Source: an uncultured Gammaproteobacteria bacterium
GTDB taxonomy: Bacteria > Pseudomonadota > Gammaproteobacteria > GCA-001735895
DNA: 60,970 nt
Assembly: GCA_964196115.1 (NCBI GenBank)
Contig: CAXMRQ010000036.1
Coordinates: forward strand, 1 to 60,970
Direction of reading: 5' to 3'
The notes under the pieces: generated by a model
What the model was told of the DNA's origin: nothing
Database searches by the model: none
Seen by the model: the letters and a program-made list of their open reading frames with translations, nothing else
Shown here: positions 39,586 to 43,168 of the stretch, in pieces
Layout of the letters: every line of letters starts with the position of its first letter
Numbering within the stretch: the first letter of the stretch is position 1
Made by a program: the position numbers and the translations under genes

Positions 39586-41946
39586 TCAGGCAGCATGGGA
39601 AGGTTTCGATTTTCCGTCTGGATTCAATACGTTGTAAGTCGTAACAGGTTTTGGGAAGCCCTTTAAAGATAACTCGCCAACGGGTTCAATTTCGAAAATT
39701 CCTTCGGTTGACGAAAAAACTCGCTTCGTGACAAGAATTTGCCCATGTTTGGCCTCGTCACAAAGACGGGACGCAAGGTTCGCTACGGAACCGATCGCGG
39801 CGTAATGGAAAAGCTCAGGGATGCCAATTCGCCCCATGGTTGCGTATCCGGTTCCAATCCCTATGCCAAACCCCAGGTCTACTTCCAGGGCAAGCCATTT
39901 TTTTCTCAATTCATGCATACCGGATCGCATCGCGTTTGCCATCTCAATAGCTCGACGAATATGGTCTGGGCAGGGCAGTGGGTCGTTTAGAAAACACATG
40001 ACGCCATCACCCGCAAAATGTTCCAGAGTCGCACCATATTTGAATATAAGTGGACAGACGACGGCGTGATACTCTCTTAGTACACGCATTTCTTCTTCAG
40101 GTTCGGATAGTGATGAAAATGTGGTAAAGCCGCGCAAATCGCAGAAGATGACGGTAACCTCACTGCGATGATCTTCCAGGATCCCGGTGTTTTCATCCGA
40201 GACGATTGCATCTGCGAGCTGGGGCGGGAAAAACCGCTTGAGTTGCTCGACATGCTGCAGTTCATTTACCTGGGCGGAAACGCGGTCTTCCAGTTCTTTA
40301 TTCCACGCCTCCAGTTGTTCTGACTGTTCGACCAGTTCGGTAATGTCCGTGTAAACGGCTACGGTTCCGCCGTCAACAGTCTTGCATTCATGGATCTGGA
40401 TGCAGCGGCCGTTACTTTGTTGTTGCAAGTGGCTTCCTTTGGCATCGTGATAGAGCGCCAGGCGATTCTTTACCCATTCATCTATGTTGTTTTCGGCTCC
40501 CTTGATCAGGCCGGCCTCGGCAGCAGCGCGAATTACGGTTTCAAAGAGAGTCCCGGGAACCATGATACTGGCGATGCCAGGGTATAGGTCGCAATAATGA
40601 CTATTGCATAGCACAAGGCGGTCTTCTGCGTCGTATAAAGAGAAGCCTTCGGCGATCGACTCGATTGCATCTCTCAGGCGTTGCCGGGCCTGCTGGATCT
40701 CTCTCAGGTTTGTTTCTCTAACCACGACGGCGGTATCGCGAAATACCAGAAGGGCCCTGGCCATGTCATTGATTTCATCTGTTCCACTGGCAGGGATACG
40801 AGCATTCAGATCACCATTGGCTATGGCGAGCATACTATCGCTAAGGCCGGTCAGACGAGAGATCAGGTTGCGTCCGACGTAGAGCCACACGATTAGCGCG
40901 GAGCAGACCATGCTCAGCACCACTACGCCGATCATAATTACCGTACTGGTTCGCTGAACCAACAATGCTTCCGCGGTTGCATTCTGGATGTCGCTATTAG
41001 CGCGGGAGACGAGGCTATCGACCGAGCTTGTCAACCGGGTTGAAATTTCGACATTCTGATCGAGAAGCGTCTGCATGAAGTCAAGGTGGCGTAACTCCAT
41101 TTTTCGCGCATTTAGTATGCTGTTCTTGCCATTGGTATATGCCCGGAATTCTGCCAGACGTGGGTGCAGGCGGTTTGCAAGGTCTGGCTCGATGCCTGTC
41201 AATAACTTCTCCAACTCATCCAGAGAACGGCGCAACGGGAATGACAGCACATTGAGATCCGCCTCGCTTTTTGCCGAGGCCGCCTTGATTAACATCTCGT
41301 TAATAGTTGACACTTGAGCCTTCGCTCCCTGCAGGGGAGTCAATGGTATGATTGACCTGGCCAGTTCACCGATATCCCGGGAATTCTGCCCATCGGCATC
41401 ACTGGGATTTTGTAGTTCTCGACTTATCTCGGCTAGCTTGGCGTCCATTACCAGAAGGCCGGGCTCAAGCAATCGTCTGGATGATATGTCGGTGAAACGC
41501 AAGTCTCGAAGTAGTTCGTTTCTGCGTTCGACGAGTACCAGGTTGTTTATGATCATGGTATCAACAGTGCCGAGATTCATTCTGAGCCGGTCTACCAGGC
41601 TTTCGATCAGGACGAGGGAGTCCGGGTTTACATCCAGGTCGCTCAGGGCAGCCAGCTGCGTATGGAGGCCGGAGAGCTCAGCGGCTATGCGTTGCGACAT
41701 TTGCTCGTGCTGCTGTGTCGTGTTGACGGCCAGCAGGGCAGGAGCGATGGCAACAATTCTTTCGGCCTGGCGGGAAAGTTGCTGGGAAGCGATGGTTGCC
41801 GGGACACGATCTTGGGTGATCCTACCCAGCGCATCACCGGCCTTCAGAAATGAGTACATCGCGGCACCAGCGGCCAGCACGGCAAATCCGCTTATTCCGA
41901 AAAATGCTAAAAGCAGGCGGGCACGCACGCCCAGCCGGTTAATCAT
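39586..41946 (-). CDS. Membrane class III nucleotidyl cyclase: TorS-like periplasmic sensor, HAMP, PAS, cyclase
   Basis: Two TM helices around a long helical domain; HAMP (DEINDMARAL); PAS (EGFSLYDAEDRLVLCN); IFCDLRGFT, FAGDG, NLASRL. Confidence 0.85.
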   Translation of the reverse strand: MINRLGVRARLLLAFFGISGFAVLAAGAAMYSFLKAGDALGRITQDRVPATIASQQLSRQAERIVAIAPALLAVNTTQQHEQMSQRIAAELSGLHTQLAALSDLDVNPDSLVLIESLVDRLRMNLGTVDTMIINNLVLVERRNELLRDLRFTDISSRRLLEPGLLVMDAKLAEISRELQNPSDADGQNSRDIGELARSIIPLTPLQGAKAQVSTINEMLIKAASAKSEADLNVLSFPLRRSLDELEKLLTGIEPDLANRLHPRLAEFRAYTNGKNSILNARKMELRHLDFMQTLLDQNVEISTRLTSSVDSLVSRANSDIQNATAEALLVQRTSTVIMIGVVVLSMVCSALIVWLYVGRNLISRLTGLSDSMLAIANGDLNARIPASGTDEINDMARALLVFRDTAVVVRETNLREIQQARQRLRDAIESIAEGFSLYDAEDRLVLCNSHYCDLYPGIASIMVPGTLFETVIRAAAEAGLIKGAENNIDEWVKNRLALYHDAKGSHLQQQSNGRCIQIHECKTVDGGTVAVYTDITELVEQSEQLEAWNKELEDRVSAQVNELQHVEQLKRFFPPQLADAIVSDENTGILEDHRSEVTVIFCDLRGFTTFSSLSEPEEEMRVLREYHAVVCPLIFKYGATLEHFAGDGVMCFLNDPLPCPDHIRRAIEMANAMRSGMHELRKKWLALEVDLGFGIGIGTGYATMGRIGIPELFHYAAIGSVANLASRLCDEAKHGQILVTKRVFSSTEGIFEIEPVGELSLKGFPKPVTTYNVLNPDGKSKPSHAA

Positions 41947-42034
41947 ATTACTGTCCTTATCAGTTGTTGGAAATCCCTGCCTGCCCCGTACGCTGCTGCG
42001 ATTACCTCGCCAGGTGCTTATTTAAACGCGCAAA

Positions 42035-43168
42035 TCAGGGTACCGGTTCGTATTTTCCATTTTTCCACATGTACCAGATGTAACCCGGTGCAGTGACGTC
42101 TCCTTTGTCGTCAAAACTGATCTCTCCCAGCACCGTATCAAACTGCTCATGTCGAAGAGACTCTATAACTTTATCCAGTACCAGAGTTCCTGCTTTTTGT
42201 GTGGCCTGGGCCCATGCCTGGACCGCGGCATAAGTATGTAGCGTGTAACCGGAAGGCTCGAAACCCTTGTCCCGAAAGCGGGCAACCACCGAAGCTGCGG
42301 CCTGAAAGTTGCGCGGGTCCGGGCCAAAGGTTCCCAGCGTGCCTTCGCCTGCCTGTCCGGTGATCAACCAGAATTCTTCATTGGTGAGGGCGTCACCTGT
42401 AACAAATTGTGCGGTATATTCCCGGTCACGGGCCTGTCGCACCATGAGGCCTGTTTCCGCTGTATATCCACCGACGTAGATTACATCAATACTTGCAGCC
42501 TGCATCTTGTCGACAAGTTGCGAGTAGTCCCTTTCACCTGGCGCGAATGTCTCATCCAGGGTTATCGTGATACCACGCTTATCGAGTTGTTTTCGGGTTT
42601 CATCGGCCAGGCCTTTGCCGTAAGTCGAACCATCATGAATTATGGCGATGTTACTGTCTCGCCACACATCGCCCAGGTAATTGCCAGCCACGACACCCTG
42701 GTGATCGTCGCGACCACATACGCGGAACACGTTATCGCCACCTTCGTCCGTCAGTCTCGGATTAGTTGAAGCTGGGGAGATCATTAACACACCAGCGCCC
42801 TGATAAACCCTGGATGCCGGAATCGATGAATGGGAACAGACATGTCCGGCGACGAAGACAATACCATCGCTGACCAGTTTGTTCGCGACTGCCACGGCTT
42901 GCTCAGGGTCGCAGGCGTCGTCGGCGATCAGCAATTCAACCTGCTCACCGAGCACGCCGCCTCTCGCGTTTATGTCGGCGACGGCCATCTCGGCGCCATG
43001 CTGAATCTGCTCACCCCTGAAAATATTCGTTCCAGTGAACGGACCGGCAGTGGCAATCAGGATTTCTGCCTGTGCGGAAACCATGTAGAGCACGACTAAC
43101 GCTACACACGCGAAATTTAAAACAAGCCGAAAATGTTTGAGTCTTGCTGGCATTTTCTGATCGTCCAT
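42035..43168 (-). CDS. Orphan branched-chain amino acid-type substrate-binding protein (LivJ/K-like)
   Basis: DDACDPEQAVAVANKL, GHVCSHSS, FRVCGRDDHQG, YGKGLAD, FDDKGD; no permease or ATPase nearby. Confidence 0.9.
   Translation of the reverse strand: MDDQKMPARLKHFRLVLNFACVALVVLYMVSAQAEILIATAGPFTGTNIFRGEQIQHGAEMAVADINARGGVLGEQVELLIADDACDPEQAVAVANKLVSDGIVFVAGHVCSHSSIPASRVYQGAGVLMISPASTNPRLTDEGGDNVFRVCGRDDHQGVVAGNYLGDVWRDSNIAIIHDGSTYGKGLADETRKQLDKRGITITLDETFAPGERDYSQLVDKMQAASIDVIYVGGYTAETGLMVRQARDREYTAQFVTGDALTNEEFWLITGQAGEGTLGTFGPDPRNFQAAASVVARFRDKGFEPSGYTLHTYAAVQAWAQATQKAGTLVLDKVIESLRHEQFDTVLGEISFDDKGDVTAPGYIWYMWKNGKYEPVP

Follow-up and report, generated by a model that had tools for sequence, protein, structure and literature searches.

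How could a membrane-bound class III nucleotidyl cyclase respond to a ligand that is caught outside the cell by a separate protein? This question is raised by a pair of genes in a stretch of 60,970 nucleotides from an uncultured Gammaproteobacteria bacterium (positions 1 to 60,970 of contig CAXMRQ010000036.1, assembly GCA_964196115.1), which at its full length is called here the window. The pair is formed by two open reading frames (ORFs) of the minus strand, in which the upstream one encodes a solute-binding protein (SBP) and the downstream one a transmembrane receptor with a C-terminal cyclase domain. A sequence-only reading of this DNA had proposed that the architecture of the sensor kinase TorS and its binding protein TorT is wired here to a cyclase rather than to a kinase. 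The conserved SBP pairing, the TorS-like predicted fold and the co-divergence of both proteins support this proposal. We think that the SBP most likely switches the cyclase, because the pairing is conserved across many relatives, and we give a probability of about 70% to SBP-dependent control of the class III cyclase by a two-protein receptor, as judged by comparing sequences.

In the mechanism that we propose, the secreted SBP would capture a small amino-acid-like ligand in the periplasm and would dock on the dimeric membrane cyclase at its TorS-like domain, a double four-helix bundle. The change would then travel via the second transmembrane helix, the HAMP domain, the PAS_7 domain and a helical linker to the cyclase domain, as in TorT-TorS. 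The outcome would be a change in the rate of cyclic-nucleotide synthesis, for which both activation and inhibition by the ligand are allowed.

Conservation of the Gene Pair

The co-oriented unit that had been described, an SBP gene followed by a sensor-HAMP-PAS-class III cyclase gene, is borne out by the ORFs and by Pfam domain matches. The terminator scan gave no terminator-like site in the 88-nt gap between the two genes, an AAGGA motif is found 8 nt ahead of the ATG of the cyclase gene, and the SBP-sensor gaps at homologous loci are mostly of 50–260 nt. The two genes are probably an operon and co-transcribed. Both genes evolve under purifying selection: in a comparison with the orthologous locus L003 (86% DNA identity), the ratio of nonsynonymous to synonymous substitution rates (dN/dS) amounts to 0.12 in the cyclase gene and to 0.10 in the SBP gene. 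Many independent metagenomes from marine sediment contain DNA that is almost identical. The search for cyclase homologues gave 2053 matches, the nearest named relatives being metagenome-assembled genomes (MAGs) of Gammaproteobacteria.

The pairing extends well beyond close relatives. Cyclase homologues at 89%, 60% and 41% identity are each preceded immediately, on the same strand, by a Peripla_BP_6 gene, with unrelated flanking genes; the last of them belongs to Mesorhizobium sp. AA22, and the pairing holds both in this genus and in Gammaproteobacteria MAGs. Searching with the sensor part retrieved the TorS-like-HAMP-PAS_7 N-terminus (47–70% identity) fused to several outputs, namely class III cyclases, plain and hybrid histidine kinases, and SpoIIE phosphatases; one kinase variant and one phosphatase variant have the SBP gene upstream too. 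A metagenome scan with alignment of these proteins provided 80 loci, 76 of them with at least 300 nt of upstream sequence. A Peripla_BP_6 gene is directly upstream on the same strand in 60 of these 76 and directly downstream in one, whereas another SBP family is adjacent in seven: SBP_bac_3 in four, DctP, the SBP of TRAP (tripartite ATP-independent periplasmic) transporters, in two, and a divergently oriented SBP_bac_5 in one. The survey of synteny that the sequence-only reading had suggested therefore finds a conserved pair, with Peripla_BP_6 adjacent in 61 loci and an SBP gene of some family beside the sensor gene in 68, over a range of sensor identity from 99% down to ~37%. A lack of such conservation had been named as an outcome that would refute the proposal, which thus stands on this count.

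The SBP had also been called an orphan, and this stands in the sense that no transporter is linked to it within the window and the 80 related loci, which are the scope of the statement. No Liv-type (livHMGF) transporter, second SBP or second sensor was found in the window, and its only ATP-binding cassette (ABC) transporter is of the sugar type, comes with Peripla_BP_4 and is located in an inositol cluster more than 25 kb from the pair. An ABC ATPase appears in the flanks of 4 of the 80 loci, always downstream and on the opposite strand, and never in the operon.

Some members of the family have other arrangements. Two SBP genes, Peripla_BP_6 and then SBP_bac_3, precede the sensor with kinase output at L009:3072-8750, and tandem Peripla_BP_6 genes are found before the sensor at L027, L062 and L066; such doubled genes may provide more than one ligand input per receptor. 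The sensor homologues L036:1882-3072 and L037:754-1944, located on a long branch of the sensor tree, have no adjacent SBP and are preceded by a gene for a cNMP_binding-SpoIIE phosphatase, which is a possible cyclic-nucleotide effector linked to the receptor family. An apparent Peripla_BP_6-sensor fusion (P0162, L013:2371-7118), which if real would have counted as Rosetta-stone evidence, was rejected, as it is frameshifted, comes from a fragmented, error-rich contig and has an out-of-frame 'linker'. Many hybrid histidine kinases of the family (P0134, P0140, P0148, P0158 and others) bear the Joint Genome Institute (JGI) label 'adenylate cyclase', which looks like a misannotation propagated via the shared sensor-HAMP-PAS N-terminus.

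The TorS-Like Sensor Domain

The claim that the sensor is TorS-like is supported by model matches and by the predicted fold. In the cyclase protein, the Pfam model TorS_sensor_domain (PF21689) scores 32 bits, above its cut-off of 27, and the NCBIfam TorS model (TIGR02956/PRK11466) aligns to residues 8–429 with 4.6e-34. The periplasmic domains of the window and of related loci were aligned (74 in total). The AlphaFold2 model of the periplasmic domain is wholly helical, with a mean pLDDT of 89.9, and its six best PDB matches in Foldseek are TorS sensor domains throughout (E 2e-8 to 9e-6, TM-score 0.66–0.88). Among these six are the TorS-TorT complexes 3O1H, 3O1I and 3O1J (E 2e-8 to 1e-7, TM-score 0.66–0.76) as well as the apo domain of Vibrio parahaemolyticus TorS, with a target TM-score of 0.88; the next matches, PilJ and McpS, are far weaker. 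As modelled, the periplasmic domain is TorS-like in fold.

The 786-aa receptor is, however, not TorS itself, since its SBP family, ligand and output differ and its score with TIGR02956, 117.7, is below the equivalog cut-off of 676.5. Pfam gave no HisKA or HATPase domain in this protein. In every output variant of the family the PAS_7 domain is kept together with the sensor.

Co-Divergence of the Two Proteins

A mirror-tree test of co-divergence was performed with 43 distinct SBP-sensor pairs. The distances between SBPs correlate with those between periplasmic domains with r = 0.886. The partial correlation, controlling for the cytoplasmic HAMP-PAS part, is 0.70, a value that was reached by 0 of 2000 permutations, whereas the reverse partial correlation, between SBP and cytoplasmic part controlling for the periplasmic domain, is -0.10. 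SBP divergence appears to track the periplasmic domain and not the cytoplasmic part, which we regard as supportive but not decisive. In the tree of periplasmic domains, long and fully supported branches (1.35 and 0.61, respectively) lead to the loci whose partner is DctP and to those with SBP_bac_3, and output types are mixed within sensor clades.

The Solute-Binding Protein and Its Ligand Pocket

The SBP matches Peripla_BP_6 (PF13458) with 5.3e-52 and ANF_receptor with 3.7e-28 in Pfam. Its best solved relative is Atu2422 of Agrobacterium (3IP5, E 4e-105, gapless), followed by a Brucella LivJ homologue and by LivK and LivJ of E. coli; the alignment to mature Atu2422 begins at residue 35. With the NCBIfam model for high-affinity branched-chain amino acid SBPs it reaches 339, the cut-off being 477. 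The pocket is lined by R51, V110, C111, S112, H113, A133, S134, T135, Y183, Y235, D259, H311 and Y313. Residues S112, T135, Y183, Y235 and D259 align to S79, T102, Y150, Y202 and E226 of LivK, which, according to the LivJ/LivK structures, presumably bind the ligand by its amino and carboxylate groups. In LivK numbering, Ser79, Thr102, Tyr150 and Asp/Glu226 are common to the SBP, LivK and Atu2422; Tyr202 is as in LivK, while Atu2422 has Leu. The anchoring residues are kept in nearly all of the SBPs compared by alignment to LivK and Atu2422. The protein has the domain, the signal peptide and the anchoring residues of LivJ/HAAT amino-acid SBPs, and lacks their livHMGF linkage beside the pair in the window as well as in the 80 related operons.

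The side-chain pocket is different at four positions (Table 1). The full pocket pattern RVCSHASTYYDHY does not change between SBPs that accompany His/Ala cyclases, kinases and one phosphatase, and other sensor clades have different patterns. The ligand would be amino-acid-like because the backbone anchors are kept, and it is probably not a branched-chain amino acid because the side-chain pocket differs; the Arg and His residues in it suggest a polar or acidic side chain. The earlier description of a LivJ-like, amino-acid-responsive protein is therefore retained as far as the anchoring residues are concerned, but the side-chain pocket differs from those of LivJ/LivK and Atu2422.

Three SBP homologues of 63–64% identity are the last genes of livH-livM-livG-livF-DUF6867-SBP operons, one of 67% identity precedes a TorS-like kinase and a response regulator, and the lone gene P0405 has neither transporter nor sensor beside it. 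In the tree of SBPs, a basal grade beside Atu2422 is made up of the transporter-linked proteins, and the sensor-linked SBPs of known context, except the long-branch L049, fall in one clade (support 96). This clade is nested among the transporter-linked Atu2422-like SBPs and also holds P0405 and many SBPs of unknown context. It looks as if the SBPs linked to sensors had radiated from a transporter SBP and their pockets had become diverse. A small DUF6867 gene is kept between livF and the SBP gene in three Bra/Liv-type ABC operons, which belong to different organisms (L094:4113-4409, L095:4010-4351 and L097:3961-4308).

The Cyclase Domain

The catalytic domain scores 70.6 bits with Guanylate_cyc (PF00211; cut-off 21.9), and its best solved relative is CyaB of P. 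aeruginosa (3R5G, 7e-30), no close member having a structure. Residues were mapped against CyaB (Lys/Thr at the base-specifying positions) and Synechocystis Cya2 (Glu/Gly). The defining features of a class III cyclase are present: besides the domain match, the metal-binding D603 and D647 and the transition-state Asn and Arg are retained, with R605, N723 and R727 in place, and so is the phosphate Arg. Together with purifying selection, the intact catalytic residues argue for an active enzyme.

The base-specifying positions are occupied by His643 and Ala716. Adenylate cyclases have Lys with Asp (Thr) at these positions and guanylate cyclases Glu with Cys, Gly or Ala. The adenylate pair is replaced at both positions, whereas in comparison with the guanylate pair the first position is His rather than Glu and the second is Ala, small like the Gly of Cya2. 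Ala is likewise found at the second position of XC_0250, a bacterial enzyme proven to be a guanylate cyclase. No characterised cyclase with His or Arg at the Lys position was found in literature searches, the coverage of which was incomplete. Because His643/Ala716 replace the adenine-specifying Lys/Asp(Thr), the product cannot be called from sequence and might be cyclic AMP (cAMP), cyclic GMP (cGMP) or another cyclic nucleoside monophosphate (cNMP). The cyclic-nucleotide output that had been proposed is upheld by the class III domain with its intact catalytic residues, and its product is left uncertain by the His/Ala pair.

All the cyclases of the window clade (58–99% identity) carry the His/Ala pair, and farther members of the family with the same sensor carry Lys/Thr. 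A uniform clade of 787-aa proteins (L047, L048, L051, L054, L055 and ~20 more metagenome contigs) has Gln/Ser, and L076 has Arg/Ala. The alignments indicate that the receptor family carries at least four catalytic-pocket types. The cyclase domain itself was exchanged as a unit and came from a different subfamily: the protein P0024 is 70% identical to the window protein over residues 1–545, but its cyclase domain is just 31% identical, and an identity of 58–59% in that domain is reached by proteins whose N-termini are unrelated. The domain alone gave more than 1000 matches at E<1e-30 among 1.8 billion representatives. In the best 150 of these matches, Arg or His predominates at the Lys position and Ala or Gly at its partner. 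When 80 of these 150 were scanned with Pfam, about half had GAF, and others had HAMP, receiver (REC), Cache or PAS inputs.

Weighing the Readings

Several points weigh against control of the cyclase by the SBP. Contact between SBP and sensor is deduced entirely from genomic association and co-divergence, and the faster rate of the periplasmic domain gives it a wider dynamic range, which can inflate the partial correlation. In eight of the 76 loci there is no SBP adjacent to the sensor. A cNMP-binding effector was not found in the window by a weak single-sequence search. His/Ala is not a characterised specificity pair, so that cyclase activity itself is something we infer. A rival reading takes the two genes as neighbours without partnership: the SBP would feed an ABC permease of the Bra/Liv type whose genes are located elsewhere, the TorS-like domain would sense something different, either directly or via another protein, and adjacency would reflect no more than co-regulation. 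In general, there are known cases of orphan SBPs that work with a permease encoded at a distance. The homologues of 63–64% identity do sit in livHMGF-type ABC operons, and the window SBP might also, or instead, serve such a transporter; another relative is the lone gene with neither partner. We nevertheless find this reading improbable. Adjacency persists across alpha- and gammaproteobacterial lineages, in spite of changed flanks and with four output types, and where Peripla_BP_6 is absent another SBP family takes its position. Moreover, the sensor-linked SBPs form a clade of their own, with four pocket residues changed with respect to the transporter type, and it is the periplasmic domain, not the cytoplasmic part, with which they diverge in step. 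Finally, the TorS structures matched by the model include TorS-TorT complexes, and TorS senses trimethylamine N-oxide (TMAO) through TorT, as described in a review.

The cyclase domain could alternatively be a regulatory pseudo-enzyme, or the maker of an unusual product, in which case the protein would not be a receptor cyclase in the usual sense. The base-specifying residues, which form neither of the two known pairs, speak in favour of this, as does the identity of just 31% to the Lys/Thr domains of the nearest sensor relatives. We consider it very improbable, since both metal-binding Asp residues are retained, as are the Asn and Arg of the transition state and the phosphate Arg, and His/Ala is invariant across a clade of 58–99% identity, with a dN/dS of 0.12. 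The domain belongs to a subfamily of more than 1000 matches, and the 80 of these that were scanned with Pfam show it joined to GAF, HAMP, REC, Cache and PAS inputs, which is what one would expect if the output module is active; XC_0250 shares the Ala. A broader reading takes two statements jointly. According to one, the TorS-like bundle would serve generally as an adaptor on which periplasmic binding proteins dock, with at least five SBP families (TorT type, Peripla_BP_6, SBP_bac_3, DctP and SBP_bac_5) and at least four outputs; according to the other, the window pair would be what the natriuretic-peptide-receptor guanylyl cyclases are in animals, but bacterial and split into two proteins, in which an SBP lined with Arg and His senses an acidic or polar amino acid and the His/Ala cyclase makes cGMP or another non-cAMP nucleotide. 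That both hold together is, in our opinion, rather unlikely. Control of the cyclase by its SBP partner through the TorS-like domain is the reading that we prefer.

Features of the Pair and Its Surroundings

Table 1. Features of the SBP-cyclase gene pair in the window, with residues that line the SBP pocket (from the alignment to LivK and Atu2422).
Feature	Coordinates	Strand	Basis
SBP gene, LivJ/Atu2422-family secreted solute-binding protein, 377 aa	42035..43168	-	ORF, Pfam, PDB match
SBP signal peptide, residues 1-34, predicted cleavage between SAQA and EI	43067..43168	-	hydrophobic segment 10-42; cleavage predicted
Intergenic spacer, 88 nt, putative ribosome-binding site AAGGA at 41954-41958, without terminator-like hairpin	41947..42034	-	sequence reading, terminator scan
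Receptor cyclase gene, 786 aa	39586..41946	-	ORF, domain matches
Transmembrane helix 1, ~residues 10-32	41851..41919	-	hydropathy peak 2.16
Periplasmic TorS-like double four-helix-bundle sensor domain, residues 33-335, proposed SBP docking site	40942..41850	-	Pfam, AlphaFold2 model, Foldseek
Transmembrane helix 2, ~residues 336-358	40873..40941	-	hydropathy peak 2.72
HAMP, residues 357-404	40735..40878	-	Pfam 1e-09, 39 bits (cut-off 25)
Cytoplasmic PAS_7, residues 428-542	40321..40665	-	Pfam 1.3e-22
PAS-cyclase linker, residues 543-593, probably helical; output-exchange junction	40168..40320	-	alignment
Class III nucleotidyl cyclase domain, residues 594-773; D603, R605, H643, D647, A716, N723, R727	39628..40167	-	Pfam, PDB mapping
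Pocket positions 18/77/80/~275, window clade: Arg/Val/His/His
Pocket positions 18/77/80/~275, transporter-linked SBPs and Atu2422: Phe/Phe/Gly/Tyr
Pocket positions 18/77/80/~275, LivK: Trp/Leu/Ser/Ile

The pair is located within a cluster of second-messenger genes. A cyclic di-GMP (c-di-GMP) riboswitch of the c-di-GMP-I type was recognised with Rfam at 37900-37961 (+), with 38.1 bits against a gathering score of 35, upstream of an ORF at 38017-39333 that gives weak, fragmentary matches to fibronectin-type-III Pfam models. An HD-GYP gene (34552-35799) is followed by a GGDEF-EAL gene (35799-37079), whose start overlaps the preceding stop.

On the other side of the pair, a 121-aa ORF at 43509-43874 (+) resembles just the C-terminal half of a cyclase-like domain, scoring 20.1 bits with Guanylate_cyc, which is below the cut-off, and has Val at the position of the transition-state Asn. 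It adjoins an IS110-family transposase at 44364-45392 (-). This ORF was considered as kin of the receptor cyclase and rejected, as no BLAST similarity was found; it is unrelated to the pair. Because homology to the orthologous contigs L003 and L017 stops at 43282, the stretch beyond this point is specific to this genome, and it may be the remnant of a disrupted gene. Also unrelated to the pair is the inositol-catabolism-like cluster scattered over ~1257-26642, with Inositol_P, KduI/IolB, PfkB, DUF2090, GFO_IDH_MocA, a thiamine pyrophosphate (TPP) enzyme and the Peripla_BP_4/BPD_transp_2/ABC_tran sugar transporter.

Significance

The triggers of bacterial membrane class III cyclases are mostly unknown, and this receptor family offers a ligand-binding component that is soluble and easily purified, with the clear prediction that SBP plus ligand alters what the cyclase produces. 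A review on SBP signalling asks which families of SBPs and of sensors join in indirect receptor activation, and to this the survey contributes as well: a single sensor fold occurs next to four additional families of SBPs, and the outputs that it feeds are of four kinds. If the sensor-linked SBPs are indeed a radiation, they would provide natural matched sensor-ligand pairs for specificity studies and for biosensor design. In addition, the variants with His/Ala, Arg/Ala and Gln/Ser lead one to ask which nucleotide these widespread cyclases make.

Comparison with Known Systems

Two reviews devoted to receptors that SBPs stimulate name chemoreceptors, kinases, c-di-GMP enzymes and Ser/Thr kinases, and put the number of characterised pairs of SBP and kinase at only about ten; adenylate and guanylate cyclases appear in neither. 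No characterised SBP-dependent adenylate or guanylate cyclase was found in our literature searches, which had incomplete coverage. The combination of an SBP and a TorS-like sensor is already known; as far as we could find, the cyclase output, the Peripla_BP_6 partner, the modular breadth and the specificity residues have not been described.

The nearest mechanism, by analogy, is that of TorT-TorS from E. coli and Vibrio parahaemolyticus (3O1H/3O1I/3O1J, 3I9Y and 3I9W). In both cases the gene of a binding protein stands beside that of a membrane receptor, and a periplasmic double four-helix bundle is followed by a second transmembrane helix and HAMP, the likeness here coming from the predicted fold. 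TorT, however, belongs to another SBP family (Peripla_BP_1 in the review) and binds TMAO, whereas the window SBP is a Peripla_BP_6 protein with amino-acid anchors. Similarly, TorS is a hybrid histidine kinase that acts on TorR, while the window receptor carries PAS_7 and a class III cyclase, and the two sensor domains have ~14% sequence identity.

Among binding proteins, Atu2422, the Agrobacterium SBP for γ-aminobutyric acid (GABA) and short amino acids of the Bra ABC transporter, and E. coli LivJ/LivK share fold and family with the window SBP, which differs from them in having no linked permease or ATPase genes and in its side-chain pocket. Among cyclases, P. aeruginosa CyaB, the mycobacterial HAMP cyclases and the S. 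meliloti CHASE2 cyclases are membrane class III enzymes like the window protein, although CyaB has Lys/Thr at the specificity positions instead of His/Ala. To our knowledge, none of them has been described with a separate binding protein.

The animal natriuretic-peptide receptor guanylyl cyclases and the trypanosome receptor adenylate cyclases have a LivJ-like ectodomain fused to a class III cyclase. Chains of the atrial natriuretic peptide (ANP) receptor occur among the PDB matches of the cyclase domain. These receptors differ from the window pair by covalent fusion and a single transmembrane helix, whereas the window encodes, in two ORFs, a receptor and a separate soluble SBP, which would act via a helical TorS-like adaptor, HAMP and PAS. 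In both designs a type-I periplasmic-binding-protein fold would control a class III cyclase across the membrane, and we think that the natriuretic-peptide and trypanosome receptor cyclases are the nearest analogy in logic to the pair described here.

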